DNA of 64,000 bases from a virus. This document shows positions 42,603-56,876 of the stretch, piece after piece. Position 1 is the stretch's first letter; each line of letters starts with the position of its first letter. Below the pieces are notes generated by a model. The model was not told the origin of the DNA and did not search any database. It was given only the letters and a program-made list of their open reading frames with translations. Both the position numbers and the translations under genes were made by a program. The stretch covers positions 1 to 64,000 of IMG/VR virus record IMGVR_UViG_3300042013_000045; one strand, given 5' to 3'.

Positions 42603-42610
42603 TAGTGCCA

Positions 42611-42649
42611 GGCTCACTGCATGTAACAGTGCAGTGAGTCTTTGTTTTT
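42611..42649 (+). terminator. intrinsic terminator
   Basis: GGCTCACTGCA...TGCAGTGAGTC followed by TTTGTTTTT. Confidence 0.65.
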
Positions 42650-42678: not shown

Positions 42679-44127
42679 ATGAGTACCCGACCTTTAATTG
42701 CTAAGTACCCGTTGGATAAGACGGGTACCTCGCCGACGAACAAAGTCATCGGCGAGGTCCGTGAACTCAACGGTTCGCGCGATCGTGCTTTCGTTCCATT
42801 CGGTGGGCCGTTCTACACCGAAAGCTTTAAGATCATCAACAACGACACTGGCCTTCCGCTGGTTCCGGTTGATGACTACATCCTGTGCCAACCGTTCCAA
42901 CAAGCGGCGCTGCGTACCGGTAAAGATGTCCAGTGCGTGGTCTGGATCAAACTGCCTGCACCGATCACCGTTCGCTACGAGTATCAAGTAGTCGGTGGTG
43001 AGTACAGCTGGAACATCGAAGCCTTGGTGCAGATGATCAACGAGATCGATCTCGATGGCCGTCCTGTACAATGGGGTTCGATCATTGGTAAGCCTACTGC
43101 TTATCCGCCGGCTCCTCACATCCACGACATCGGCGACAGCTACGGCTGGGAATACGTGGTCTTCCAACTGGAAGGCATCCGTAATGCGATCCTCGTAGGT
43201 GACGAAGCGTCTCACGATGAACTGCGTCAACAGATGCAAGCGATTCGTGACGAATTGGAGTTGCTGATTGCAGCGGTGGACGACAAGGTCGATCTTCACA
43301 TTGCGGACTATGCTAACCCACACCGGGTGACCAAGCTGCAAGTGGGGTTGGGTCAGGTCCAGGACTTCCCGATTGCGTCTGCCTCGGAAGCGTTGGCTGG
43401 TACAGCGACTAACCGTTACATGACGCCAGCCCTGACCACCACGCTGATCAACCGTCTGATCGACGAGCAACTCGGCGCTCACATCGCTGACAAGAACAAC
43501 CCGCACAACACCACCAAAGCACAGGTGGGTCTGGGTTCGGTCTTGAACTACGGTGTGGCTACCACTGGCGAAGCACAAGCCGGTGCGGTCAACGACAAGT
43601 ACATGACTCCTGCGCTGACCAAGGCTGCGATCATGTTCGTTGTGGGCGATGCGTTCAACACTCATGTGGCGAACACCAACAATCCTCACGGTACCACTGC
43701 TACTCAAGTGGGCTTGGGTCTGGTACAGAACTACGGCGTAGCAACAACCGCTGAAGCTCTGGCAGGGACTGCGACCAACAAGTACATGACGCCTCAGTTG
43801 ACGAACGCGGCTATCAAGGCAACCGCCTCGGATGCTCTGATCGCCCACATCGCGGACAAGGGTAACCCACACGGTACTACGGCAGCTCAGGTTGGTCTCG
43901 GTAACCTCCCGAACGCCATCACCCGGAGCCGCTTCAGTAACTCTGACGCTCAACTGCTGACCGCTGGCAGCATGTTCGATCACGTGAACTCGGGTGACCA
44001 CGATGCTCGTTACAACCCGAAAAACAACGTGAGCGTGGATGGTAGTATCCATATCTCCGGTGGTCGTGGTTACGTTGCGATCAGCGGCGGGTGGCGTCAA
44101 TTCTGGCCGGCTCAGTGGGTCGGTTAA
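42679..44127 (+). CDS. tail fibre protein with NPH repeats (phiKZ gp145-like)
   Basis: Paralogous N-terminus and four NPH...QVGLG repeats. Short C-terminus ending GGWRQFWPAQWVG. Confidence 0.75.
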   Translation: MSTRPLIAKYPLDKTGTSPTNKVIGEVRELNGSRDRAFVPFGGPFYTESFKIINNDTGLPLVPVDDYILCQPFQQAALRTGKDVQCVVWIKLPAPITVRYEYQVVGGEYSWNIEALVQMINEIDLDGRPVQWGSIIGKPTAYPPAPHIHDIGDSYGWEYVVFQLEGIRNAILVGDEASHDELRQQMQAIRDELELLIAAVDDKVDLHIADYANPHRVTKLQVGLGQVQDFPIASASEALAGTATNRYMTPALTTTLINRLIDEQLGAHIADKNNPHNTTKAQVGLGSVLNYGVATTGEAQAGAVNDKYMTPALTKAAIMFVVGDAFNTHVANTNNPHGTTATQVGLGLVQNYGVATTAEALAGTATNKYMTPQLTNAAIKATASDALIAHIADKGNPHGTTAAQVGLGNLPNAITRSRFSNSDAQLLTAGSMFDHVNSGDHDARYNPKNNVSVDGSIHISGGRGYVAISGGWRQFWPAQWVG

Positions 44128-44171: not shown

Positions 44172-44681
44172 ATGTTACGCAAGTTGACCGATTTCCAGTT
44201 TATAGGTATCACCGAAGAGCGGTTGGCGGTTGACGCGCTGTTGGACAGTCTCTACCCGTACGATCAGGGTTTGATCAAGATCGTACGGGACGGGGGCATG
44301 CACGACGCATTCAGTATCATGGATGTGCTGGAACATGAAGACAAGCCGTTGAAGATCGAAGGGATTGAACGGTTGAACCGCATTCTGTATTCAGAGTGCC
44401 AACGACTGGGCGGCAACTTCGGTCACTACGGGCCTGTCACCTGTCATCTATTCAGGTCCCCTAAGGACTCCATCAGTTTCCCCATGCATGAGGATCTCGA
44501 CGATGTCGTGGTTCACATGGTCAAAGGGAAGAAGATCTTTGAATCTCCCTCAGGCGACCTCGAGTTACTTGAGGGGGAATCCATTTTTATCCCACGTGGC
44601 ACTAAGCACCGGGCGATCAACGTCGAAGCGTCAGTGATGTTGAGTTTTGGTATTGAGCGCTTCATCGTCGAGAAACTCTGA
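44172..44681 (+). CDS. JmjC/cupin-type Fe(II)/2OG oxygenase
   Basis: FPMHED...KGKK...FIPRGTKH gives an HxD...H triad, as in the YcfD/ROX class. Confidence 0.7.
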   Translation: MLRKLTDFQFIGITEERLAVDALLDSLYPYDQGLIKIVRDGGMHDAFSIMDVLEHEDKPLKIEGIERLNRILYSECQRLGGNFGHYGPVTCHLFRSPKDSISFPMHEDLDDVVVHMVKGKKIFESPSGDLELLEGESIFIPRGTKHRAINVEASVMLSFGIERFIVEKL

Positions 44682-45719
44682 ATGCAATCGAAAACGATCT
44701 ACGTCAAAACCACAGGTACATGCAACCTCAACTGCTCCCACTGCTTTACCAACGGGAAGTCTGGCGACAAGACCCAGTTCTGCCCCGATAGCGTGGGAGA
44801 CTGGGTTGCTGACTTTATGTCACGTTACCCGGAAGGTACGCACTACCACATGGAATTCCATGGTGGCGAGCCGTTCTTGGTTCCGGTTGCTAAGCTGAAG
44901 CAGTTTGCAGACAAGTTCCACGACAATGAAAACGTTTCCATGTGCGCCAACAGTAACCTGACGTTTAAAATTACAGATGAGCACATTAATTTCATTAAAA
45001 CATATTTTAACAGTTATATAGGCACAAGTTGGGATCATTGGATCAGATGGTCCAATCAGAAACAACTCGACCTGTGGAAGAGCAACCTCAAGTTGCTGGG
45101 TAGTCACGGGATTGGGATTGGTCTGAAGGTCTCGGTTAGCCGTGAACTGATTAAGATGTCAGCTGACTGGTTCATTGATCAGCTGGAAAGCTTCGGTGTA
45201 GAGGAAGCGTCCCTGGAGCGGTTGACCTTGGATGGCAGTGCTAACGAGAACCCAGACATCTTCCCCGATAACGAGGAACAGGATAACTGGTATCTGGCAG
45301 TGTATCAGCGCTACCACGAACGCCAGCCTACTGTCCGTATTCGCACCATGGACATCATCAAGGCAAAGCTCAAGCACAACATCGTCAAAGTCGACACCAG
45401 TTGCCGCAACTGCGAGCAGAACTTGGTGACGATCAACTCCAGCGGTACGTTGGGTGGCTGTCCCAACGTGGCTACACAGAAACACCACGCAAAACTCTCC
45501 GATGGCGTTACTGCTTTCCTTGAGTCAGACAGCCGCACGGATGACATCGTCAAGGAACTCTCCTTTGGCGAGACGTGCATGACCTGTGACGTGTTCGATC
45601 TGTGTGGTGGTGACTGTCACCGGTTGCCGTGGCAAGGTTCGCGCTGTGGGGGTTTGAAGAATACCTTGCGCTTCCTGTCCGGTCGTGTGCAGACCACCAA
45701 TCTAATTTTCAAGGGGTAG
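44682..45719 (+). CDS. radical SAM/SPASM protein 1
   Basis: CNLNCSHC, FHGGEP and C-terminal CMTCDVFDLCGGDC. Confidence 0.9.
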   Translation: MQSKTIYVKTTGTCNLNCSHCFTNGKSGDKTQFCPDSVGDWVADFMSRYPEGTHYHMEFHGGEPFLVPVAKLKQFADKFHDNENVSMCANSNLTFKITDEHINFIKTYFNSYIGTSWDHWIRWSNQKQLDLWKSNLKLLGSHGIGIGLKVSVSRELIKMSADWFIDQLESFGVEEASLERLTLDGSANENPDIFPDNEEQDNWYLAVYQRYHERQPTVRIRTMDIIKAKLKHNIVKVDTSCRNCEQNLVTINSSGTLGGCPNVATQKHHAKLSDGVTAFLESDSRTDDIVKELSFGETCMTCDVFDLCGGDCHRLPWQGSRCGGLKNTLRFLSGRVQTTNLIFKG

Positions 45720-45722
45720 AAC

Positions 45723-46259
45723 ATGGCTACTGATATTCTTCGGCAACATGTGGCGAACGTGGCGAACGCCTACGTCCGTAACAATGCCAACTCGGGCATC
45801 TCTTGGGGGACGAACAACTACCCAGGTGGTTCCCTAGGGTGGTTTGCTGGCGACACTAACGGTATCGCACAGGCGTTCGATGCTAACTGGATCGCTGGGG
45901 GTGATGCTTCGGCATCCAACGTCGCGGCGCACCTGCGTAACTTCGCGAACCTCTTCGGCGGTATCCGTCTTACACGCATCGTGATCTATTACCTGGACTA
46001 TCGTTACGGCACCACGGTGCAGTACGACGGTACAGCAATTGCCAACACGATCTACGGTGTGGGCGATTACGCTTCTGGTGCTGCGCTGCCTGGTTTGGCT
46101 GGCGGTGCTGACATGGACTTGAACAACCTGAACGCCTGTGGCAATAGCCTGTGGAACAGCTACTACGCTAACGCCCGGAACACAGTCCTTACTCTTACCA
46201 ACACTATCTGCCACACCAGCTGCCATGACAACTGTCACTGTGCACGCGGGCGTCGCTGA
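45723..46259 (+). CDS. Gly/Asn-rich protein with C-terminal CHxx repeats, candidate modification substrate
   Basis: Ends in CHTSCHDNCHCARGRR and sits among the modifying-enzyme genes. Confidence 0.7.
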   Translation: MATDILRQHVANVANAYVRNNANSGISWGTNNYPGGSLGWFAGDTNGIAQAFDANWIAGGDASASNVAAHLRNFANLFGGIRLTRIVIYYLDYRYGTTVQYDGTAIANTIYGVGDYASGAALPGLAGGADMDLNNLNACGNSLWNSYYANARNTVLTLTNTICHTSCHDNCHCARGRR

Positions 46260-46271
46260 GGAGCCATTGTC

Positions 46272-47039
46272 GTGACAGACCTCGCCCCAAGCAATCCCAA
46301 TGAAGTGCTGGTAACCATCCCAATCCCTCCGGCCATCCTGCGTCGTAAGTTCACAGAACCGGACTTGCTGTTCGTCATTGATTACGACAACAGCAAGTTC
46401 AAAGGTAAGATGATGATCACTTACCTGTCCAACCTGAACATCAATTGCAAGTTGCAGCTGAATGACTCGGTGAATGCGTTGGAGCTGCTGTCGCAGTACT
46501 TGCGGATCACTACACTGGTCACCATTAGCGACATGGAACACCTGGCCATGCAGATGCTGTTGGCCTATTGCGGTAAACCTCACATGTTGGACTTCGACCC
46601 TGCGGAGTTCATTGCAGCGAACGATGACATCCTGACTGTGTGGAAACGTCGCTTGTTCCAACTGCCGTTGTTTGCCATGCACGTCCTGAAGAAGTTCGAG
46701 GATTACCTCGAGCAGTTCCCAGAAGACGATGATGACGGGATGTACGGTATCAACTACGTGCACTTGATCAAGCATGAAGACTTCGCCATCCTGATGCACG
46801 GTTACACCGATGACCTGCTGACCAAGAACACCACGCTCTTCAACGAGTACCTGTTCGCCGGCAAGAACTTGTTCCACTACTTCGCAGTTCAAAGCAATCC
46901 GCTCTTCATGGGCGTGTTGTCGTTGCAGGACGAAGCATCCTTCAACCTGATGAAGCCTGCGCTGGCAGAGGCTGCTAAGCAGTTGGAGCTGGTAGTGCCG
47001 ACGATCCAATTGAGGATTGCCAATGTACCATCTATTTGA
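46272..47039 (+). CDS. hypothetical protein of the radical SAM cluster
   Basis: GTG start with a GAGGAG RBS, 255 aa. Confidence 0.7.
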   Translation: MTDLAPSNPNEVLVTIPIPPAILRRKFTEPDLLFVIDYDNSKFKGKMMITYLSNLNINCKLQLNDSVNALELLSQYLRITTLVTISDMEHLAMQMLLAYCGKPHMLDFDPAEFIAANDDILTVWKRRLFQLPLFAMHVLKKFEDYLEQFPEDDDDGMYGINYVHLIKHEDFAILMHGYTDDLLTKNTTLFNEYLFAGKNLFHYFAVQSNPLFMGVLSLQDEASFNLMKPALAEAAKQLELVVPTIQLRIANVPSI

Positions 47040-48075
47040 TTCGGTCTACGTCGATACGCACTCGCGCATTGATCGTACACAGGACGTTATCACCATCGGC
47101 AATCAACTGGGTTACGAATACTTCCCAGATGAACGTGCGGTGGTCGGTAAGCAACTGGCTTTCGCTGAGAGCCTGGACGACGTGACCCCTGAAGCCTTCG
47201 TAGAAATGTTCACGTTGGCCAAAGCGTCGAAGAAGGCCACGGTCTTCTGTTGCGGTGGAACGTACCTGAGGCTGTACACGCTGTTGGTGAAAGCTCTGCT
47301 GCCTGCGGTGGATCTGGAAACCTTCAAGTGGATCATGCTCTGCAAGAAGGCCACGTTCAACACCACCTTGACCAACATCCGCAAACCTGTGGTTGATGTG
47401 ATCGGTTCGGTGACGATCACTGGCAAAGTCATTGAAGAGCTGTACGCCTTCGAAGACCCACTGCTGCCTGCAATGCAGGAAGTGATCCTTCAGGACAAGA
47501 CCACCCTGTCGCTCGAATGGCGCATCTTGCGCTTGAAGACTGACCAACGGGTCGGCATGCTGCCAAAGGTGCTCAAACGCATCCTGCACCGCATTGCATT
47601 GGCTAACACGCATGACGCCTTGGATGTCTGGGGTCGTGTACTTACCGAACCAGAGAACTGGGAATTCGGTGGCTGTGACTTCGACAGTCTGTTGAACGCT
47701 CCTACGGTGTTCGAAGGGTCGATGGCGTTGCAGTTCTCCAACAACCCAATGTTCCTTCAACCGAACCTGTTCGATCAAGAACCGTCGGATGACTGGATCA
47801 AAGGTTTGTTGTCTGAACTGATCCCAATGCTGGCTCACTGTGACGAAGGCCCAACGGCCGGGCGCACCAAGTTGATCCTCAAGCTGTTGCAAGAGCAGGT
47901 CAACCTGTACAACCCAGAAGTTTGTCTCGAACGCGTGATGACCATGTTCCACGGTCCAAAGCGTCTGGCACTTCCAAACCGAGATTCCGGCAAGTACGAC
48001 GAGAACTTGATCCGGTACATCCTACGAACTGACGTGGTTATTTTGAAGGCCTGCGTCGAAGGAGCTGAATGGTGA
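47023..48075 (+). CDS. hypothetical protein of the radical SAM cluster
   Basis: ATG 47023 with a GAGGA RBS. Overlaps both neighbours. Confidence 0.7.
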   Translation: MYHLFDSVYVDTHSRIDRTQDVITIGNQLGYEYFPDERAVVGKQLAFAESLDDVTPEAFVEMFTLAKASKKATVFCCGGTYLRLYTLLVKALLPAVDLETFKWIMLCKKATFNTTLTNIRKPVVDVIGSVTITGKVIEELYAFEDPLLPAMQEVILQDKTTLSLEWRILRLKTDQRVGMLPKVLKRILHRIALANTHDALDVWGRVLTEPENWEFGGCDFDSLLNAPTVFEGSMALQFSNNPMFLQPNLFDQEPSDDWIKGLLSELIPMLAHCDEGPTAGRTKLILKLLQEQVNLYNPEVCLERVMTMFHGPKRLALPNRDSGKYDENLIRYILRTDVVILKACVEGAEW

Positions 48076-49070
48076 GTAATCTTATCCCACTCGTGGACAT
48101 CTTGCAGGATAAGAAGGGCAAGTACAAGGAAGCTCACTTGATCCTTTTTGAGCGCTGCAACATGCGCTGCTCGTTTTGCCACCAGGACCACGACTCGGAA
48201 GTCGGGATGAGTGGGGAAGATGTACTTGCTAAAGTGGACACGTTCATCATGAACTCCGATCCTAATGACGCCTATGTGGTGAACATTACGGGTGGTGAGT
48301 TGTTCATGGACGACGTCCCTGATGAACTGTTCGAATACTACTTCTTGGCCGGTAAGGCGATCCTGCAACGCTTCGAGGACGTCAAGCTGGTCTTTGGTAC
48401 GAACCTCGTTTATCAGAACACGGCCCGCGTTCGTCGTTTGATGCAGCGACTGCATCCATTCGGTCACGCCTGTCTGGCAACCTCGTACGATCCTGCTGGG
48501 CGGTTCAACGGGGAGCAGCGTAAGTTGTTCCTTGAGAACCTGATGGAGTTCGAGGCGATGATTGAGACTGTCAACGTGGTCATCACACGACAGAACATCG
48601 ACATCTTCTTGAAAGGCCAAGAGGGGCCTGAGTTCGACGTCATGGTCGCAGGCTTCGATGTCTACTTCGACCATTACATCCCGAGTACGCGTTACGAAGA
48701 GCATCAGCCTACAGAACACGCGATCAGCGAACTGTACCTGAGGCTCAATGAACGTTACCCCAACTCCTATCCGATCAAAGCATGGAAAGAGAACCAATTC
48801 AACGACACCACTTGCCGGTCTACCAAGATCATCAACAGCAATGGCATCGTGACCACGTGTTGGTCTGAAGCGGGGAAAGACTCTGTGCTGGATGAAGGAC
48901 AGGGCTTGGCGTTGAAACAAGCGGCCGAAGATCGGTTCCTTGAGAAGTACAACTGTCTGGCGTGTGAGTATTACCAGCGGTGCGGTTTGCGTTGCTTCTT
49001 GCATCACAGCTTTGTTGAAGACGGCTCAGACGAGTGTCAGATCAAAGTTATGTTCGACAAGGTATTGTGA
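48069..49070 (+). CDS. radical SAM/SPASM-like protein 2
   Basis: CNMRCSFC, TGGE and C-terminal CLACEYYQRCGLRC. Confidence 0.88.
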   Translation: MVSNLIPLVDILQDKKGKYKEAHLILFERCNMRCSFCHQDHDSEVGMSGEDVLAKVDTFIMNSDPNDAYVVNITGGELFMDDVPDELFEYYFLAGKAILQRFEDVKLVFGTNLVYQNTARVRRLMQRLHPFGHACLATSYDPAGRFNGEQRKLFLENLMEFEAMIETVNVVITRQNIDIFLKGQEGPEFDVMVAGFDVYFDHYIPSTRYEEHQPTEHAISELYLRLNERYPNSYPIKAWKENQFNDTTCRSTKIINSNGIVTTCWSEAGKDSVLDEGQGLALKQAAEDRFLEKYNCLACEYYQRCGLRCFLHHSFVEDGSDECQIKVMFDKVL

Positions 49071-49077
49071 AGTGTCT

Positions 49078-49107
49078 AGGACTAGGGGATATCCCCTAGT
49101 CCTCTTT
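49078..49107 (+). terminator. hairpin inside the cluster
   Basis: Perfect palindrome AGGACTAGGGGATATCCCCTAGTCCT followed by CTTT. Confidence 0.55.
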
Positions 49108-49129
49108 ATCTATTACTTGAGTAACTGCC

Positions 49130-49327
49130 ATGAACCAATTCGAATTGTCTGCTGATGGATACGAATCTGCTGTAGCTTGGTTGAACGACAATGGTCATAG
49201 TGCGCACCTAGACTCCGACCGGGCTCCGATGGATGGTTACACGATCATCACCCTGGCCAACTCGCTGAAGAACAACGCGACTGTACAGACCCAGGCTTTC
49301 CTGCGTCCAGTTCTGCAAGCCTGCTAA
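49130..49327 (+). CDS. small hypothetical protein
   Basis: 65-aa ORF filling the gap before rSAM 3. Confidence 0.5.
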   Translation: MNQFELSADGYESAVAWLNDNGHSAHLDSDRAPMDGYTIITLANSLKNNATVQTQAFLRPVLQAC

Positions 49328-49338
49328 GAGGCAACACC

Positions 49339-50433
49339 GTGAACCTGATTATCAAACCGACCGTAGCGTGTAACTTTAAGTGCACGTTCTGTTCCAGCAC
49401 TCATCTCTCTGAAGAACCCAAAGACATCGTTGAGTTGGAGGACATCGAAGCCTTCATCAAACGTTATCCTCACACCAGCACCATCATCGTCAACGGAGGC
49501 GATCCGCTGATGATGCCTCCGTCGTACTACTACTCGATCATGGAGATCTTGGACAAGTACGAGTGTCCTGCCATTCTGTCGTTCACCAGTAACCTCTGGG
49601 CGTTCTACAAGAAGCCTGAGATGTGGGCACCTCTGTTCAAGCTTGACCGAGTAGGGGTGACCACCTCGTTCCAATACGGCGACAAACGCCTGAAGGGTGA
49701 CGGGACTGTGTTCACGGAAGAAGAGTTCATTGCTGTCAGTGATCTGTTCTTGGAGCACGTGGGTTATCGTCCGGACTTCATTGCCGTGATCGACACCGAC
49801 AACGCTCACACCGTTCTCGACACTGTACGGCTTGCTCAGCGACTGGACGTCGAAGCCAAGGTCAACTACGTCTCAGCATCCGGGCCAGAGGTGACCAAGA
49901 AAGGCATCACGATGGGCAGCATCAATCACATGTATGCTCAAGCGGATATCTACGAGCAGTACTTGTCGATCTACGATGCCGGTCTCATGAAGTGGGAATA
50001 CAACACCAAGCAGATGGTCAAGCGCCTGAACCTAGGTACCACGACCTGTCCCTTGGCGCGTCACTGTGATGAAGGCATTCGTGCACTGCAACCGGGGAAG
50101 AACTATTACTCCTGTGGCAGCTTTGGAGATGACAACGAATACCCAATCGACTTCGGCAAGGAAATGGCGGGTGAGTTCTTCACTCCACTGCGCAATGAGG
50201 AAGCGCTGCATTCCATGAAGGAGTCGTGCAATGTCTGTCCTATGTTCTCAATCTGCAATGGCTGTCGTAAGACCATCGCTGATACCAAACGCCTAGGGCT
50301 GGTTGAGCATCACTGCAAGAAGATGAAGTCCCTTGCTCCACGTATCATCGACGCCAACGGCATGACCGGCATTCTCGAGCCGACGCCGTACGAAGATGAA
50401 TCCATCCAACTGATTCCACTCATCGCAATGTAA
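49339..50433 (+). CDS. radical SAM/SPASM protein 3
   Basis: KPTVACNFKCTFC, NGGDP and C-terminal CNVCPMFSICNGC. Confidence 0.9.
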   Translation: MNLIIKPTVACNFKCTFCSSTHLSEEPKDIVELEDIEAFIKRYPHTSTIIVNGGDPLMMPPSYYYSIMEILDKYECPAILSFTSNLWAFYKKPEMWAPLFKLDRVGVTTSFQYGDKRLKGDGTVFTEEEFIAVSDLFLEHVGYRPDFIAVIDTDNAHTVLDTVRLAQRLDVEAKVNYVSASGPEVTKKGITMGSINHMYAQADIYEQYLSIYDAGLMKWEYNTKQMVKRLNLGTTTCPLARHCDEGIRALQPGKNYYSCGSFGDDNEYPIDFGKEMAGEFFTPLRNEEALHSMKESCNVCPMFSICNGCRKTIADTKRLGLVEHHCKKMKSLAPRIIDANGMTGILEPTPYEDESIQLIPLIAM

Positions 50434-50443
50434 AGAGAGCACC

Positions 50444-51370
50444 ATGAAGCCAGCAATCAATGTCTCCCTCAACGTTTCGTATTACTGTAACTTCCGGTGC
50501 TCTTTCTGTTACTTGACTGAAGAACAACTTGGTGACCGTACCAAGGTGAACCTCGAGCTGCTAGCTTCACGGATCGATGAGATCTTGGCATACTACACCA
50601 TCGAGCACGTAGACCTGTATGGCGGAGAAGTCCTGCTGTTACCCAAGGCGTATCTGCTCGGCATCAAAGAGATCCTCCATGCACGCGGTATCACCGACAT
50701 CGTGTTGATCACGAACCTCTCGCTCGTCAATGAGATCGCTAACGATCCAGACTTTGAGATCTCGGTCTCTTACGACTTCGGGGCGAGAGAGAAGGCAGAT
50801 GAAGTCCTCGGTAATATGTTCATGCTGGAGAATCGGTTCACTGTCTTGACGCTGGCCTCTCGTGCGTTCTTAGACACGGTATCGGTCGACGAGTACGTTG
50901 ACACCATGAACCTGTTAAACCGTCTCAAAACGGCTGAGATCAAGCCGTACAGCAGTAACCAAGCCAACGATCACGCAGTACAGTTTGATGAATTCGAAAA
51001 CTTCGTCTGGGCAGTGATAAACCACCCTAACCGCGAGTTCTATTTCGAGAACCGCAGTCAGGTGAAAGAAGCTGTAGAGACTGGCAACCGTAATGCCTTC
51101 AGTGACAACCACATCTACATCACTCCGACGGGCGACTTCGCCGTCCTTGAGTTCGATGGTAAGGATCGTGAGTTCTTCCTGAAGGTAGACGGGATGGCGG
51201 GCTACCGGGCGTGGTGTGATGCAGAGAAGAAGCGGGTCAATGCGAACCCGTACTGCCAAGCGTGCCCTTACAATGGCAAGTGTCTCTCTGAGCACTTAAG
51301 AGAAGTCGTGACCTTGGAACATTCCTGTAATGGGTTCAAAGGTCTACTAGACAGGTGGGCAGCACAATGA
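50444..51370 (+). CDS. radical SAM protein 4
   Basis: CNFRCSFC, YGGE and C-terminal CQACPYNGKC. Confidence 0.88.
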   Translation: MKPAINVSLNVSYYCNFRCSFCYLTEEQLGDRTKVNLELLASRIDEILAYYTIEHVDLYGGEVLLLPKAYLLGIKEILHARGITDIVLITNLSLVNEIANDPDFEISVSYDFGAREKADEVLGNMFMLENRFTVLTLASRAFLDTVSVDEYVDTMNLLNRLKTAEIKPYSSNQANDHAVQFDEFENFVWAVINHPNREFYFENRSQVKEAVETGNRNAFSDNHIYITPTGDFAVLEFDGKDREFFLKVDGMAGYRAWCDAEKKRVNANPYCQACPYNGKCLSEHLREVVTLEHSCNGFKGLLDRWAAQ

Positions 51371-52404
51371 TGGTACAACACCGGCAACGGTTGGAGATCA
51401 CCCTCGATATCTTCCGGGGGTGTAAGCACGCTTGTTCGGGGTGCATGATCGACAAGGCTATCGGCGGGGATGTGACTGACATTCCTGAACTGTTGGACTT
51501 GATCAAGGAGATGACGGCTGCGGGTTACGTGGCATTCGACTTAGGTGTGGGTCCGACGGACTACATGTCTTCAGACAACACCGCGGAAGTCATGACCAAC
51601 CCGGTCTTCAACGAGATGGCTCAACTGTTTCACCAGATAACGTTTAACGCAGCCTTTCTTGAGAAGGACTTGGAACAGTACGCTAGCATGTGTGCTGACA
51701 TCGATGAGGCAGCACCGGGTAAGGCCATTCGTTTCCTTATTCCTGCTGCCCCGACGTTCTTCAAGTCTGACAAGTTCGGCAACATGATCAAGATGAAGCT
51801 TGAGTTTATCAAGAACGCTATGAAGTCAGCGTACTTGAACGAAGCTGGCTTTGTGGTGAACTGCACTACGGAGACGGTTGGTGAGGATTTCGATGTCCGC
51901 ATGATGGATGGCTTTGAAGTAGAGTTCCCGGTGGACAAGGATGACATCCTAAACATCCCTTACGGGCGCTCTCCGAACAAAGACCTGATGCTGGCACAGA
52001 ACATCAAGCGGATCAGTCACCGCATCAGTGAGTTCTATGCCAAGTTGAACGGTATCGATGAACGTCGACGCAACCCCGACCTCCATTACGACACGGGGAC
52101 GATGGTCAACCTGCTGTACACCGGCGGTAAGTTGTATTGGGTGCCGTTCCTTAAGGATGACTGTCCGTTCATTGACGACGACTTTACGATCCCACGCCCC
52201 TGGACTATGGATAACCTGCTGGCAGTCCGTAGCAAGGCTCTGGAGAGTTCTCTGGAGTACTTGGAGGACACGCCGTGCATGAACTGCGTCTATGTCAGTA
52301 GTTGTGCTGAGAAAGGCATCACCAGCATCATGAAGAAGATGGCGATCAAAGATTGCCTAGTGGGGTTACAACATGCTTTCCCAACAGATCTCGATGTCGT
52401 TTAA
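51367..52404 (+). CDS. divergent radical SAM-like protein 5
   Basis: CKHACSGC, GPTD in place of GGE, and C-terminal CMNCVYVSSC. Confidence 0.7.
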   Translation: MMVQHRQRLEITLDIFRGCKHACSGCMIDKAIGGDVTDIPELLDLIKEMTAAGYVAFDLGVGPTDYMSSDNTAEVMTNPVFNEMAQLFHQITFNAAFLEKDLEQYASMCADIDEAAPGKAIRFLIPAAPTFFKSDKFGNMIKMKLEFIKNAMKSAYLNEAGFVVNCTTETVGEDFDVRMMDGFEVEFPVDKDDILNIPYGRSPNKDLMLAQNIKRISHRISEFYAKLNGIDERRRNPDLHYDTGTMVNLLYTGGKLYWVPFLKDDCPFIDDDFTIPRPWTMDNLLAVRSKALESSLEYLEDTPCMNCVYVSSCAEKGITSIMKKMAIKDCLVGLQHAFPTDLDVV

Positions 52405-53407
52405 CATCTCGCTCGAGGTATTGACGGGGTGTCGTTACAGTTGTGCGGGGTGTACGGTTGAGAAGAACTTTGCACCCTTGGATGTGTCCGAGAAAGACAC
52501 CGACGATCTAGTAGTTATGCTCGATGATCTGATTGCTGATGGGTATCGGTTGTTGGAGTTCCGAGTGGGGCCGACGGATATCATCTCTGCGGATAATGGG
52601 TTCCCTGCATTGAAGCATCGTTTGACGCGTGAGTTCGGCAAGCGCTACAAGGCGTTGAACTTGAACATGGCGATGCTTCACGATGAAGGCTTAGTAGAGC
52701 TGGCAGAGATCTTGGACGAAGTCATTCCTGGAAAGCTGCTCAGCGTTACTCTACCCATCACATTAAAAAATACACACAACGACAAGTACATTGGTGAATT
52801 GAAAAAAAGAGTGCTGTATTTTAAGGGACTGTTGAAGACTGTAAACTTCAACAGGATCTATCTCACTTTGAATGTGGGGGAAGAAAACCTAAAGCACTTG
52901 AGCACTGAGAGTTATGATCATGCCCATGAACTTGACTTAGGTGTCGATCTTGTAGTGGAGTTCCCGTTCGCTCATTCAAGGAAGGGGTTCGGTAACCTGC
53001 TGGTCGTGGATGAGTTCAAGGCTGATCTGGTAGAGTTCGTGGACTTCATGAAGACACGGGTTAACACAAGGGGCTTTCGTCCATTGCAACCTGCAATCTT
53101 AGAAGGTTTCGAATTCACCTATCGGGGAGGGCTTCTGTACTCTGTCCCCGTGGTCGTGGAGAGCCTTCCGATGTTCCATCCGATGTTTGTGGTGGATCGT
53201 CCGTGGACCGCCCAGAGCATCTACGCCTACAAGGAGCAACATTACTACAACAACCTCGAGACGTTCCTAGAACACCCCGAGTGTGGTGACTGCATGTTCC
53301 TAGACCATTGCGCACGTGGGGACGTCCATCGGATCATGAACTTGATCGGGACTGACAAGTGCCTGACTGATTCCAAGAATAGATGGGAATACTTCCACCC
53401 GGAGTAA
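52373..53407 (+). CDS. divergent radical SAM-like protein 6 (paralog of 5)
   Basis: CRYSCAGC, GPTD and C-terminal CGDCMFLDHC. Confidence 0.7.
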   Translation: MLSQQISMSFNISLEVLTGCRYSCAGCTVEKNFAPLDVSEKDTDDLVVMLDDLIADGYRLLEFRVGPTDIISADNGFPALKHRLTREFGKRYKALNLNMAMLHDEGLVELAEILDEVIPGKLLSVTLPITLKNTHNDKYIGELKKRVLYFKGLLKTVNFNRIYLTLNVGEENLKHLSTESYDHAHELDLGVDLVVEFPFAHSRKGFGNLLVVDEFKADLVEFVDFMKTRVNTRGFRPLQPAILEGFEFTYRGGLLYSVPVVVESLPMFHPMFVVDRPWTAQSIYAYKEQHYYNNLETFLEHPECGDCMFLDHCARGDVHRIMNLIGTDKCLTDSKNRWEYFHPE

Positions 53408-53410
53408 ACT

Positions 53411-53848
53411 ATGCTCAATCCTGATGACATCATGATCACTGACGGCGTCGAGATTCCGCACTGGTTGTTAGATGAAGCAATGTGCTTGGAGAACCGTAAG
53501 TTCATTGAGGTCGAGAACATCGTCGACTTCACATGGAACTACCTCCGTGCTTACGCTCTCAAGCACCCTCTCGTGAATAAGCCGATCCGTCCGTGTGCCA
53601 GTCACATCAACATTGGCCATCATGGGGTGACACCTCACAACCACGAACCCCATGCGTTCACCTCCGTCCTGTACTTATTGGATGCTGAGGGTGAGCTGCG
53701 GTTCTGGGATAACGTTGATCTGTCCATCACACCCAAAGAGGGACGGTTCGTTATGTTCCCTGGTCACATCACCCATTACGTCGAAGCATCCAAGCAAGCC
53801 GAACTTCGCATCTCGCTGGTAACCAACTATGAATACTACCCGACATGA
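53411..53848 (+). CDS. putative Fe(II)/2OG oxygenase (TIGR02466-like)
   Basis: PHNH...TSVLYL...MFPGHITHYV...RISL. Confidence 0.7.
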   Translation: MLNPDDIMITDGVEIPHWLLDEAMCLENRKFIEVENIVDFTWNYLRAYALKHPLVNKPIRPCASHINIGHHGVTPHNHEPHAFTSVLYLLDAEGELRFWDNVDLSITPKEGRFVMFPGHITHYVEASKQAELRISLVTNYEYYPT

Positions 53849-54275
53849 GTACAAGGATTACCAGGAGCTGTACCAACTCCTGGTGACCGACCATCCTGAT
53901 GCGTTTGCCAACATGGAGATCGTTGAAGAAGAAGAACTCGTGCACAACGCACTGAAGTACTTCGACCATGCGACCTTCCCTTTGATTTACCCGGCCAAGA
54001 GTTATGCCGTGGCGATCATCTACGCTTACAAGATCAAAGAGGTCTACGGTGTTCCTGTTCTTACTACCCTGGATGACCCGGATCTGTTCCTTGGTCAAGA
54101 CCCTTACTTCGTACCGTACTCAGCGGACAAGGCGACGTATACGGACATTATCGCTCATCTCCAGGATCGACCAAACTTCCTCAATGAAGGATGGGCACCC
54201 CAAACCGTGAAGTACTTCTACGCCGAGTGTACGGCTGAAGGGATTGAAAAGTTGCAAGAGGAGTTCTGCAAATGA
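53829..54275 (+). CDS. hypothetical protein of the radical SAM cluster
   Basis: 148 aa, overlaps both neighbours. Confidence 0.7.
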   Translation: MNTTRHEYKDYQELYQLLVTDHPDAFANMEIVEEEELVHNALKYFDHATFPLIYPAKSYAVAIIYAYKIKEVYGVPVLTTLDDPDLFLGQDPYFVPYSADKATYTDIIAHLQDRPNFLNEGWAPQTVKYFYAECTAEGIEKLQEEFCK

Positions 54276-54838
54276 ACATCATCCAGCCATGGAAGATCGA
54301 GATCGGTCATGTCAACGTCAATGGCACCCCTTGGGACATGACTGAATTCGCCACAGAAGTGTTCAACCTGAACCTGATGACCGGTGGGCAACAAGAGACC
54401 CAGGTCAGCTTGGGTTCTGGCCTCTGTCCCATCATTCTGGAGATGCGTGACACTCTCATTACGCCGCTGGTCAAAGAGTTCGCACGGAATCAGCTTGGGT
54501 ACATCCTGCGAGACGGTGAGTTCGAAGTCGAGACCAACGCCAAGTGGATTCCCAAAGGCGAAGGTCTCTATCCTCACCAGCACTCCAGTTCGATCCTGTC
54601 GGTCATTGTCTACCCACAGGACTCCAAGTCTGGGTTGAACTTCTTTGACCCTCGCACGAATGCTGGTCGTGGGTTTCCTCGTGAGATCCGTGATGAACAC
54701 TTTGCCCGTTATGCCATCTCGCCTAAAGCCGGCGATGTGTTCATCTTCCCCAGTTACCTTCAGCACAGCGTTTCGTATGTAGAAGAAGACATCCGTCTCT
54801 CGCTGTTGCATGAATACTATCCACATTCCACTCGCTGA
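54272..54838 (+). CDS. putative Fe(II)/2OG oxygenase (TIGR02466-like)
   Basis: PHQH...SVIVYP...FDPR...IFPSYLQHSV...RLSL. Confidence 0.78.
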   Translation: MNIIQPWKIEIGHVNVNGTPWDMTEFATEVFNLNLMTGGQQETQVSLGSGLCPIILEMRDTLITPLVKEFARNQLGYILRDGEFEVETNAKWIPKGEGLYPHQHSSSILSVIVYPQDSKSGLNFFDPRTNAGRGFPREIRDEHFARYAISPKAGDVFIFPSYLQHSVSYVEEDIRLSLLHEYYPHSTR

Positions 54839-54846
54839 GAGCTCTC

Positions 54847-55395
54847 ATGGAAATCATACAACCTTGGCAAGTCAAGATTGCCCGTGTCAACATCGCTGAG
54901 TTTGTAGACCTCGAAGGTCTGGCTGGCGAGATCCATCAACTGCACTGCCTGTCCCCTCGGGAGTCTGCGACGCCGTACCCAGTCACACCCGCTGAGTTCC
55001 CGCTGATCTGCGCGGCACGTGACGGTATCATCACTGACAAGGTCAGCGAATACATCGAAGAAGCCTTCGGTGTAAGTCCTCTGGGGATGGTGATCGACAC
55101 CTTTGGCAAGTGGTTCGGTAAAGGGGAAGAGCTGGGTTCTCACCTGCACGGCAACTCCAATGTGACCAGTGTGTTCTATCCGTACGAATACAGCACGGGC
55201 ATGATGCTGATGGACCCTCGCTTCAACGCACAGCGCGGTTACTCGCGTCGTGTCCGTGATACCCACTTCGGGGATTACAATGCACGGCCTAAAGCTGGCG
55301 ATCTCTGGATCGTACCGAGCTACGTGCAGCACAGCATCCCTACGGTGAAGGACGATCTGCGTATCTCCCTCATCAACGACTTCCACTTCATTTAA
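54847..55395 (+). CDS. putative Fe(II)/2OG oxygenase (paralog of the previous gene)
   Basis: SHLH...SVFYP...MDPR...VPSYVQHSI...RISL. Shares the IIQPW N-terminus. Confidence 0.78.
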   Translation: MEIIQPWQVKIARVNIAEFVDLEGLAGEIHQLHCLSPRESATPYPVTPAEFPLICAARDGIITDKVSEYIEEAFGVSPLGMVIDTFGKWFGKGEELGSHLHGNSNVTSVFYPYEYSTGMMLMDPRFNAQRGYSRRVRDTHFGDYNARPKAGDLWIVPSYVQHSIPTVKDDLRISLINDFHFI

Positions 55396-55404
55396 GGAAC
55401 GACC

Positions 55405-56052
55405 ATGTCTGAAGCAGATGAGCTTTACACTGGCGTTGACCGTGGCGAGTTCCTGATCTCCCGTCTTGCCACCGCTGACGGTGTGTTCACGGAAGTCAAT
55501 GCCCGCATCAAGAAGGTCTCGGTCTTCAACTACGGCAGTCAGTATGCGTACGCGCTACTCGGCTACCAGATCGAGTACTGGCTCAAGGATGAGAAGGCTC
55601 CGTACGACGGTGGCACTCCACGACTGTACCGTCCAGCAGGCCGTCCTGATTACACCACGTTGTACATGCGCATCAAGGTCAGCTCGACTGTCAAGATGCT
55701 GTACCTCGAAGACGCGATCATCAACGACTTCATCACCTCGAAGGCTCAGTTGAACTCGTTGTTCCTCGAGAGTTACGACGAAGCGGCTGCACAGCAAATC
55801 ACCAGCATGGGTATCTATCGCCGGGTGAAGGCTACTGACGTGGAATACAAGAACTGTTTCCACACCACACGCTATGAGTCTTCCACAACGGCACCCCTGA
55901 CGCTCACTGAGCAATGGATGTCGTACGTGGGCCGTGTCTATCTGACCGAAGGCGATGAACAGGTGCGTTACATCCGTGACAAGCCGTTCGTGAGCCTCAA
56001 GGACATGATCGACTCTTTGGTTGCTGACTTCACGGCATCCATCCCTACCTAA
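55405..56052 (+). CDS. hypothetical protein
   Basis: 215 aa with an AAGGA RBS, last gene before the endolysin. Confidence 0.7.
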   Translation: MSEADELYTGVDRGEFLISRLATADGVFTEVNARIKKVSVFNYGSQYAYALLGYQIEYWLKDEKAPYDGGTPRLYRPAGRPDYTTLYMRIKVSSTVKMLYLEDAIINDFITSKAQLNSLFLESYDEAAAQQITSMGIYRRVKATDVEYKNCFHTTRYESSTTAPLTLTEQWMSYVGRVYLTEGDEQVRYIRDKPFVSLKDMIDSLVADFTASIPT

Positions 56053-56063
56053 AAGGAGGCGGT

Positions 56064-56825
56064 ATGGCCGTCGATTTGAAACAACTGCAAGCCGACCTGA
56101 AGAACGTGGGTCTCTTGCCTGCTGAACCGGATGGCAAGTGGGGTCCAAAGTCCCACGGTGCGTTCCTTAAGGCTCGTGCTCTGGTGGCACGCTCCGATGT
56201 GTCGGTCGCCAAGATGTCCGCTCAACTGGTCAGTCTCTGTAAAGCCCCTGCATGGTCGGCTAAGCAGACTCCTCAGTTCGTCTCCCGCGTCAAAGAGATC
56301 GTAGCAGCTCTTGGGATGCCGTCTACGGGCGTTGATGACCTCATGGCATGCATCGCATGGGAATCGGGTGAGTCCTTCTCTGCGGGCATCGTGAACAAGG
56401 CTGGGTCTGGTGCTACTGGTCTGATTCAGTTCATGCCAGGCACTGCGATCGTCTACTTCAACTCGGCTGCTGAGATTGCCAAGATGTCGGAGATCCAGAA
56501 GAAGGAAGCAGGTCTGAAAGCCTGCCGTACTCTGGCCGCCATGTCCGACGTGCAGCAACTGGACTACGTCCTCAAGTACTTCCAACCGTACAAAGGCAGG
56601 TTGAAGAATCTCGGGGATTTATACATGAGCATTTTATGGCCGCTGGGTATCGGCAAAGACGACAGCTACGTGTTGTGGACTGCCGAAGGTCGTCCGACCA
56701 CGTTCCGTCAGAACTCCGGTCTCGATGTGAACAAGGATGGCGCGATTACTCGTGCTGAGTGTCTGGTCAAGGTCAATGACAAGTTGACCAAAGGTCTGCA
56801 CCCTGACTACCTGCGTGCTGCATAA
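56064..56825 (+). CDS. endolysin (peptidoglycan-binding-like N-terminus plus lytic transglycosylase)
   Basis: DGKWGPKS, catalytic WESG, GATGLIQFMP and C-terminal DVNKDGAIT. AGGAGG RBS. Confidence 0.85.
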   Translation: MAVDLKQLQADLKNVGLLPAEPDGKWGPKSHGAFLKARALVARSDVSVAKMSAQLVSLCKAPAWSAKQTPQFVSRVKEIVAALGMPSTGVDDLMACIAWESGESFSAGIVNKAGSGATGLIQFMPGTAIVYFNSAAEIAKMSEIQKKEAGLKACRTLAAMSDVQQLDYVLKYFQPYKGRLKNLGDLYMSILWPLGIGKDDSYVLWTAEGRPTTFRQNSGLDVNKDGAITRAECLVKVNDKLTKGLHPDYLRAA

Positions 56826-56876
56826 AGAAAAAAGAAAGAAGGCTACACCCACCAGCCATTGCGGCTGGTGGGTGTA
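56824..56876 (-). terminator. terminator at a convergent junction
   Basis: TACACCCACCAGCC/GGCTGGTGGGTGTA hairpin with a minus-strand T-rich tract. Confidence 0.75.

Follow-up and report, generated by a model that had tools for sequence, protein, structure and literature searches.

A radical-SAM and oxygenase cassette of large phages and its putative virion protein substrate

Positions 44172-56052 of the IMG/VR virus record IMGVR_UViG_3300042013_000045 are filled by 16 co-oriented plus-strand open reading frames (ORFs), here named g01-g16, which encode six radical S-adenosylmethionine (rSAM) proteins with a CxxxCxxC motif, one small cupin, three PF13759 oxygenases, five proteins outside the Pfam and NCBIfam families, and g03, a protein that ends in a repeat of Cys-His units (the tail protein). 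The source record is a 172.8-kb linear phage with a CheckV completeness of ~65%, and the window analysed here comprises its first 64 kb (64,000 nucleotides). Gaps between neighboring ORFs of the cassette measure 0-59 nt, and overlaps 4-32 nt. We favor, with moderate confidence, the interpretation that the cassette performs enzymatic maturation, probably crosslinking and hydroxylation, of a fiber-associated virion protein. Four observations lead to this proposal: the genes themselves, the conservation of their catalytic residues, the co-occurrence and adjacency of enzymes and tail protein across phages, and the presence of one tail protein homologue in virions. A prediction made earlier from the sequence of the window (the original prediction) had described the same gene content and arrangement, with six CxxxCxxC proteins carrying C-terminal Cys clusters, a JmjC/cupin protein, three HxH oxygenases of the Fe/2-oxoglutarate (2OG) type, five unknowns and one Cys/His-tailed protein; the ORF coordinates and the domain and motif analyses below agree with this description.

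The tail protein, its co-occurrence with the enzymes and its presence in virions

The tail protein g03 (45723-46259, plus strand, 178 aa) is a core gene of the cassette and encodes the putative substrate and virion protein. Its C-terminus has the form (C-H-x-S/N)x3-R-G-R-R, is encoded by the codons at 46209-46256 and reads ICHTSCHDNCHCARGRR; residues C163, H164, S166, C167, H168, C171, H172, R175, G176, R177 and R178 are invariant. A profile search of 1.84 billion representatives yielded a g03 family of 542 clusters at 50% identity. Among the best 150 of these 542 clusters, 128 show the exact CH..CH..CH..R.RR ending, 12 retain the units but end differently, and 10 have reduced variants. The tail consensus is [V/I]-C-H-[S/A/T]-S-C-H-x-[S/N]-C-H-x-[S/N/A]-R-[G/S]-R-R. 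The protein bodies fall to <30% identity and vary in length between 127 and 461 aa, while the tail is near-invariant. Homologues of 374-461 aa carry an N-terminal PF21722 (Gly_rich_2) domain, which matches phrog_863, "tail fiber assembly". When genome contigs were scanned with the g03 alignment and its clade-specific patterns, one 4.3-kb Dysosmobacter contig was retrieved.

The AlphaFold2 (AF2) model of g03 combines a confidently predicted body (pLDDT 86.8) with an exposed, low-confidence end formed by the tail (pLDDT 51-71). Within the tail, Cys and His recur at positions i, i+4 and i+8, and the modeled short helix would place the three Cys on one face. The Pfam and NCBIfam scans gave no match for g03 and showed no signal peptide, peptidoglycan-binding domain or other effector domain. 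Fold comparisons with the AF2 models of g03 and g04 produced no lead either: Foldseek returned nothing from the PDB at E <= 0.001, VIA-align wide gave no usable match (best Z 4.9 for g03 and 3.9 for g04), and the ESM Atlas shape search stayed at TM <= 0.38. A BFVD fold search with g03 recovered its own family and no recognizable fold beyond it. Complex prediction for g03 with g04 scored 0.00, which gives no verdict either way.

Gene neighborhoods were compared in two sets of viral loci, 58 retrieved with g03 as the seed and 80 with rSAM3 (g08) as the only seed, and every ORF was scored against the window proteins; rSAM3 relatives occur in 260 IMG/VR stretches overall. An ORF with the Cys-His motif is present in 60 of the 80 rSAM3-seeded loci and in 44 of the 45 that have full flanks, defined as >= 9 kb on each side. 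The original prediction had named a general lack of the CHxxCH protein from homologous enzyme clusters as the result that would speak against it, and the opposite was thus found. The tail gene starts <= 60 nt 3' of rSAM1 (g02) in 50/59 and 52/57 loci. The common core consists of the cupin g01, rSAM1, the tail protein, g04, rSAM2 (g06), rSAM3, rSAM4 (g09) and g13, with g05 as a near-core member, so that about 9 of the 16 genes are conserved; rSAM5 (g10), rSAM6 (g11), g12, g15, g07 and g16 are confined to the clade of the window. The entire block is syntenic in Pseudomonas phage pPa_SNUABM_DT01, and a reduced cassette is found in Ralstonia phages RSF1 and RSL2 and in Burkholderia relatives. The reduced cassette also occurs in the 490-kb Agrobacterium phage Atu_ph07, which bears a T4 core and belongs to an unrelated lineage, and in Sinorhizobium phage Phosso. 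The same core is therefore shared by unrelated lineages, namely the phiKZ-like phages DT01 and RSF1/RSL2, Atu_ph07, and marine contigs. Judged from these neighborhoods, it is a conserved cassette rather than a chance cluster.

A member of the g03 family has been recovered from phage particles. In purified Atu_ph07 virions, gp170 was identified as a 31.89-kDa protein with 8 unique peptides and 35.16% coverage (PMC6102473, Supplementary Table S5). It corresponds to the tail-bearing ORF L003:7983-8873 (296 aa, computed mass 31,894 Da), whose tail reads FCHSSCHASCHNSRSRR, and the numbering is secure because the neighbors gp176 and gp177 match Table S5 as well. gp170 was detected in gel fragments 1-9 and was highest in fragment 1, the top slice of the gel, where proteins of 87-137 kDa peak, whereas other proteins of ~30 kDa peak in fragment 8 (PMC6102473). 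The Atu_ph07 virion list contains neither the rSAM proteins gp165, gp168 and gp171 nor the cupin gp172 or the g04 homologue gp169 (PMC6102473). gp170 opens the structural cluster of this phage, CDS 170-215 (PMC6102473), and the cassette has fiber, baseplate or sheath genes as neighbors both in the window and in three loci from divergent phages. Together with the fusions to a fiber-assembly-like domain, the mass spectrometry of gp170 and these neighbors lend independent support to the earlier suggestion that the modified protein is a virion tip or adhesin. The further claim of a dedicated modifying pathway holds in part: co-occurrence and the virion homologue speak for it, but the conserved core covers only about 9 of the 16 genes, the rest being additions of individual clades.

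The g03 family also has an unusual composition. There is no Lys and no Glu among the 178 residues of g03, the family average for Lys is 1.3%, and Asn, Gly, Ala, Ser and Thr contribute ~9-10% each. The few tryptic sites in g03 may hide the protein from standard virion proteomics. In loci L022/L064 and L081 (IMG/VR 3300011799_000001, 3300014697_000001), several copies of the tail module are present while the enzymes stay the same; one phage has three (CHxS)3 modules and the other has ~13 CHxS units on SNVPV linkers. This multiplication without added enzymes resembles repeat-core precursors.

Enzymes of the cassette and comparison with known maturases

All six rSAM proteins have a CxxxCxxC motif near the N-terminus, which is 98-100% conserved in their orthologs, and a C-terminal Cys cluster. 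rSAM1 (g02, 44682-45719, 345 aa), rSAM2 (g06, 48069-49070, 333 aa) and rSAM3 (g08, 49339-50433, 364 aa) are core enzymes of the radical SAM/SPASM type. All 95 orthologs of rSAM1 retain C14/C18/C21, the GGE motif and 8 C-terminal Cys, and all 87 orthologs of rSAM2 retain C30/34/37, GGE and 7 C-terminal Cys. rSAM3 is the most conserved core enzyme: its 91 orthologs show 51-76% identity and share 8 C-terminal Cys without exception, and GGD stands in place of GGE. The core enzyme rSAM4 (g09, 50444-51370, 308 aa) carries one auxiliary-cluster motif, with C15/19/22, GGE and 4 C-terminal Cys invariant. rSAM5 (g10, 51355-52404, 349 aa) and rSAM6 (g11, 52373-53407, 344 aa) are clade-specific, non-canonical paralogs (24% identity, E 3e-32), in which GPTD replaces GGE and a Gly takes the place of the aromatic residue ahead of the third CxxxCxxC Cys; rSAM5 has a CxxxCxGC motif and 4 invariant C-terminal Cys, and the Cys motifs of rSAM6 are likewise invariant.

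Profile scores of these proteins are generally low. The PF04055 cut-off (29.5 bits) is passed by rSAM3 (43.5) and rSAM4 (39.6); rSAM1 (23.7), rSAM2 (24.9) and rSAM5 (14.8) remain below it, and rSAM6 has no Pfam match. The seven-Cys SPASM pattern C-x9-15-G-x4-C...C-x2-C-x5-C-x2-3-C...C is present in rSAM1, rSAM2 and rSAM3, which score 24.5, 16.8 and 17.0 bits, respectively, against the SPASM profiles (TIGR04085/PF13186, cut-off 27 bits). Since rSAM4-6 have only 4 C-terminal Cys, they do not display this pattern. Across the cassette, catalytic Cys/His/Asp residues and the metal and SAM ligands are 98-100% conserved (48-95 orthologs per enzyme), and by this criterion the enzymes look active. The paralogs among the enzymes are ancient, and rSAM5/6 and g14/g15 are the only recognizable duplicates. 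Two candidate findings were discarded: long match spans in rSAM3 homologues, considered as introns or inteins, proved to be the N-terminus of the adjacent paralog rSAM4, and PADLOC matches to pVip cover only the generic rSAM core.

The four predicted iron enzymes flank the rSAM genes. The core protein g01 (44172-44681, 169 aa) is a small Fe(II) cupin of the JmjC_2-like type, with H92, H106-x-D108, K121 and H146 invariant in 76 orthologs, and is present in 55/61 loci and in most rSAM3-seeded loci. Its match to PF08007 (JmjC_2), which spans only 38 residues (126-163), is marginal at 23.1 bits (cut-off 22), yet score and HxD...H triad both agree with JmjC_2/ROX proteins; g01 is much shorter than known ROX enzymes. 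A PDB search also linked residues 11-83 of g01 (44172-44360) to a Vibrio peptide deformylase 2 at a whole-sequence E of 4e-5, which was judged a chance match because the two stretches reach only 15.7 and 9.1 bits, with independent E values of 0.097 and 10. The three 2OG-Fe(II) oxygenases g12 (53411-53848, 145 aa), g14 (54272-54838, 188 aa) and g15 (54847-55395, 182 aa) pass the PF13759 cut-off of 27 bits with 30.1, 44.5 and 30.2 bits, respectively, and carry an H-x-H...H pattern plus Arg; TIGR02466 itself stays below cut-off. The clade-specific g12 additionally reaches 29.4 bits against PF13640. g14, in which H102-x-H104...H165 and R175 are invariant, is common, not universal, and is missing from the Atu_ph07 locus, and g15 is its recent duplicate (36% identity, E 5e-42).

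The remaining genes, g04, g05, g07, g13 and g16, have no Pfam or NCBIfam match. g04 (46272-47039, 255 aa; phrog_20767) is a core helper candidate with a confident AF2 model and no conserved catalytic-type residues. It accompanies long-bodied g03 wherever this is found, and is mostly undetected, at the phmmer threshold, in the short-bodied architecture with two tail paralogs (see below), apart from a weak match in L113. The near-core protein g05 (47017-48075, 352 aa) has no family or fold lead; an iterated hidden Markov model places its family at the same position in 109/141 loci. g13 (53829-54275, 148 aa; phrog_20737, E 1e-38) is an acidic core protein with D24, D91 and E133 invariant, which is present in most loci including Atu_ph07. 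Protein-atlas searches with g05 and g13 gave no usable match. Two clade-specific genes complete the set: the 65-aa ORF g07 (49130-49327), whose coding status is uncertain and which is found in 6/61 loci, and g16 (55405-56052, 215 aa), which occurs only in close relatives.

The nearest profile families of rSAM1-3 mature peptides or proteins. For rSAM1 and rSAM3, they are the NCBIfam families YhhB/AmcB/FxsB, PapB, anSME and DarE/DynA, followed more weakly by HxsB/HxsC. By sequence, the solved relatives are anSME, the CteB-like structure 5WGG and ChlB only, all through N-terminal matches; for rSAM3 the best is anSME 4K36, over the N-terminal 85 residues only (E 2.7e-5).

The nearest characterized systems are the HXS antiphage system and CrpC/CrpA. 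In HXS, the HxsB/HxsC/HxsD proteins mature HxsA, a protein with HxS repeats (Li et al., Nat Commun 2026, PMC13128918). A modification of +8 Da was located in an S-H-R-S-S unit, and the repeats are basic, depend on maturation by rSAM enzymes and bind to DNA within the periplasm (PMC13128918). Both systems combine several rSAM proteins and small partners with a protein-sized substrate, or candidate substrate, that has short tandem His-x-Ser units and basic residues. In the phage protein, however, an invariant Cys precedes each His, the repeat lies at the extreme C-terminus and ends in RGRR, and g03 has neither a signal sequence nor a peptidoglycan-binding domain. The phage cassettes contain four to nine rSAM proteins plus Fe oxygenases, and HXS is a bacterial periplasmic defense, whereas here the genes are phage-encoded and one homologue is in the virion. 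rSAM1 and rSAM2 score 30.7 and 19.5 bits against HxsB/HxsC cut-offs of 370 and 268 (TIGR03976-03979), and g03 shares only the H-x-S units with HxsA-type substrates.

Thioether-forming enzymes provide a second comparison. QhpD/QhpC and PapB/PapA are systems in which an rSAM/SPASM enzyme acts on a protein-sized or repeat-motif substrate encoded alongside it. CrpC of Methanococcus voltae, an rSAM/SPASM enzyme with three Fe-S clusters, introduces thioether (ranthionine) links into CrpA, the Cys-rich, protein-sized product of the adjacent gene (PMC13692751, 2026). The phage cassette shares with CrpC/CrpA the placement of an rSAM/SPASM gene beside a gene for a protein-sized, Cys-bearing substrate or candidate substrate, and rSAM1 and the PapB model align over their entire length, at 42.7 bits against a cut-off of 340 (NF047865). 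The Cys-x3-Asp/Glu acceptors of CrpC and PapB substrates are absent here, with no Asp/Glu acceptors in the conserved tail; instead, each Cys of the tail stands directly before a His, the cassette includes a set of oxygenases, and host and role differ.

The anSME family (TIGR03942; PDB 4K36-4K39) comprises minimal rSAM/SPASM enzymes of ~370 aa that modify a Cys in a folded protein. It gives the best full-length NCBIfam alignment of rSAM3, and in the final unit of the tail, Cys and Arg are spaced as in the sulfatase motif (Cys-x3-Arg). The scores (42.0 and 36.7 bits) are far from the cut-off of 349, the +2 position of the C/S-x-P/A-x-R motif is mostly G/S/N, and a sulfatase domain is absent. Triceptide maturases (YhhB, AmcB, FxsB and GrrM) form three-residue cyclophanes on repeated aromatic-x-x units of short, leader-bearing peptides. 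They are the top NCBIfam matches of rSAM1 (YhhB NF041707 49.9, AmcB NF041718 48.0 and FxsB TIGR04269 42.8 bits, against cut-offs of 370-445), and His-x-Ser/Asn formally fits their repeat; their substrates, however, are short, leader-bearing peptides as opposed to a folded virion protein, and the chemistry leaves the invariant Cys unexplained. Finally, the locus differs from a canonical cluster for peptides that are made on ribosomes and modified after translation (RiPPs), as the candidate substrate is a folded protein of 178 aa (127-461 aa in the family), and no peptidase, transporter, kinase or glycosyltransferase was recognized among the 16 genes by Pfam, PHROGs, NCBIfam or PADLOC, in line with the original prediction. 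The accompanying statement that no system of this kind had been characterized needs qualification: the cassette belongs to none of the HXS, anSME, PapB and triceptide families, but HXS (PMC13128918) and CrpC/CrpA (PMC13692751) are characterized rSAM maturations of protein-sized substrates. Taken together, these comparisons suggest a widespread, uncharacterized phage system of rSAM-dependent protein maturation that fits no named maturase family.

Proposed maturation and alternative explanations

Our proposal concerns the substrate, the kind of chemistry, the roles of the helpers and the location on the particle. The substrate would be the flexible C-terminal tail of g03, on whose three Cys-His-x-Ser units the SPASM enzymes rSAM1-3 and rSAM4 would act; the most likely products are intrachain or interchain crosslinks of the thioether and/or His-centered C-C type. 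Hydroxyl groups on His, Arg, Ser or Asn residues of the tail may be added by the cupin and the PF13759 oxygenases. g04, g05 and g13, which lack a catalytic signature, probably serve as recognition factors that hold or present the folded g03 body, and rSAM5/6 and the extra oxygenases would represent lineage-specific additions. Once matured, g03 would be incorporated into the phage particle, probably on or close to the tail fibers.

Several points weigh against this interpretation. No mass shift or crosslink is on record for any member of the family, and a metal site without any need for modification could explain the invariant Cys/His array just as well. The NCBIfam matches of the rSAM proteins, several of them full-length, all lie at 20-50 bits against cut-offs of 265-650; we therefore take the enzymes to work like rSAM/SPASM maturases outside every named family. 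One locus with full flanks, L106, has no tail gene, and rSAM1 is followed directly by g04. The Atu_ph07 loading buffer, as described, contained no reducing agent (PMC6102473), so that the high apparent mass of gp170 could be due to disulfides made by the Cys-rich tail. Lastly, the g03 homologues of RSL2, RSF1, S13 and FLC6 are annotated as "hypothetical protein" in GenBank/RefSeq, unlike a neighboring RSL2 gene, which is labeled virion structural.

As a bolder form of the proposal, which we put forward tentatively, the rSAM enzymes may weld the Cys-His tail to neighboring copies or to the fiber through C-S or C-C bonds that are stable to sodium dodecyl sulfate and heat, and the oxygenases may then decorate the product. 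We know of no described precedent for virion maturation by rSAM welding. If true, it would yield an enzymatically crosslinked, possibly metal-binding fiber-tip module common to hundreds of large phages.

The alternatives differ mainly in what they make of the tail. It might be an unmodified metal-binding module (for Zn, Fe, Cu or Fe-S, maybe between subunits), with the enzymes directed at other proteins such as the neighboring fibers. Phage fibers use His-metal sites, the island sits behind fiber genes, and the spacing of Cys and His at i, i+4 and i+8 would bring three Cys to one face of the short modeled helix. We nevertheless consider this explanation rather unlikely, since cassette and tail protein travel together across phages with unrelated fiber genes, the tail gene lies directly behind rSAM1 in ~85-90% of loci, and metal binding alone does not explain the near-invariant Ser/Asn at the fourth position or the RGRR end.

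Slightly less probable still is a role of g03 as a matured effector, ejected or intracellular, that would serve host takeover or counter-defense in parallel to HXS and would not be a structural part of the fiber. The presence of gp170 in virions fits an ejected protein, and the H-x-S units and basic end resemble the rSAM-matured, DNA-binding repeats of HxsA; on the other hand, Pfam and NCBIfam reveal no signal peptide, peptidoglycan-binding or other effector domain, PADLOC returns generic rSAM-core matches only, and the domain fused to g03 homologues is fiber-assembly-like. We regard as improbable that the tail is a sacrificial precursor from which a RiPP, peptide-derived cofactor or metallophore would be set free after modification and cleavage, in the manner of pyrroloquinoline quinone (PQQ) or mycofactocin. 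Such a route would suit the RiPP-like gene layout, the repeat-core appearance of the tail and the weak match of rSAM4 to a mycofactocin maturase, but the Pfam, PHROGs and NCBIfam scans recognized neither a peptidase nor an exporter among the 16 genes, the body forms a conserved domain of 130-450 aa whose fold is predicted with confidence, and the Atu_ph07 homologue persists in virions. Modification of phage DNA or nucleotides, or synthesis of a small-molecule cofactor, with the tail protein as an accessory, is very improbable: some phage DNA hypermodification pathways do use rSAM enzymes and dihydrofolate reductase genes lie inside the RSF1 and RSL2 cassettes, but these genes are missing from the window, DT01 and Atu_ph07, Pfam and NCBIfam detect no kinase, glycosyltransferase, nucleotide-binding or base-exchange enzyme, and the nearest rSAM families are peptide maturases.

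Genomic setting, variant cassettes and biological meaning

As the original prediction stated, the island lies between fiber genes and an endolysin-type gene. Upstream, two paralogous genes for tail/fiber-type virion proteins are encoded on the plus strand. Paralog 2 (40227-42602, 791 aa) matches phrog_2163 (E 1e-139) and phrog_13857 (E 1e-114) and is syntenic in DT01; paralog 1 (42679-44127, 482 aa), 44 nt upstream of the cassette, matches the same two families and, by tblastn, phiKZ-type "tail tip/minor tail" proteins. The original prediction had likened the fiber and endolysin genes to the phiKZ neighbors gp144-146; the best phiKZ-type match for the fiber genes is another tail-tip locus, one of 5 paralogous places. 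Downstream, the plus-strand gene at 56064-56825 is transglycosylase/endolysin-like (phrog_4928/196, with weak Pfam matches to SLT and PG_binding_1) and has 244 matching phage records, several of them labeled transglycosylase. Its nearest isolate relative is in Serratia phage PCH45 (56% identity, versus 41% for DT01), and the history of the downstream flank therefore differs from that of the cassette.

Three inverted repeats lie in this region. A hairpin with an 11-bp stem at 49078-49103 (plus strand), between rSAM2 and g07, is a possible internal terminator or processing site; a second hairpin is found near the upstream fiber genes (42610-42641, plus strand), and a perfect palindrome with a 15-bp stem (56844-56876) 3' of the transglycosylase-like gene. 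These elements may split the region into transcription units, and the palindrome may belong to a palindrome family at convergent gene ends, which had been noticed in the first reading of the sequence.

Variant loci show how the cassette diversifies. In a second architecture (L113, L126, L127, L131, L135, L054-L058), two tandem tail proteins of 127-140 aa are encoded on the opposite strand together with four to six extra rSAM5-like paralogs, and the g04 homologue is mostly undetectable. A marine T4-like genome described with "12 radical SAM genes" (PMC5332604) probably carries this architecture. RSF1 (L002:7691-8980) and RSL2 (L143:7825-8974) have two dihydrofolate-reductase-like genes between rSAM2 and rSAM3, and the RSF1 insertion additionally holds an HNH endonuclease gene. 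In L106, two small ORFs after the cassette (13396-14078) end in C-G-C-G-x-S-F, an IscA/HesB-like signature, which suggests phage-encoded Fe-S carrier proteins. A different rSAM island, with a 537-aa rSAM protein and anSME-like, MoaA-like and MgoB-like proteins, occupies the same place, behind the YomR-like fiber genes, in the related Ralstonia phages RP12/RP31 (PMC5468394, Supplementary Table 2), and rSAM islands may have a hot spot behind the fiber genes. Full-text literature searches retrieved no functional study of the cassette; its genes appear only in listings as accessory or "DNA repair/metabolism" genes.

Phage virion maturation is known to proceed through proteolysis, isopeptide bonds and chaperones, and we found no description in the literature of radical-SAM chemistry in this process. 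The cassette offers four to nine uncharacterized rSAM subfamilies together with PF13759 oxygenases and a minimal cupin of the JmjC-like type; PF13759 genes also occur commonly in cyanophage genomes, where they are not known to have a role. Because the candidate substrate is a common stretch of 16 residues, the chemistry is directly testable by co-expression and mass spectrometry, and cultured hosts are available for the carriers DT01, RSL2/RSF1, FLC6/S13 and Atu_ph07. Large phages of soil, compost, freshwater and sea spend 6-14 kb on this cassette, an outlay that implies a strong selective advantage, which might lie in adsorption, in penetration of the envelope or in the stability of the particle.

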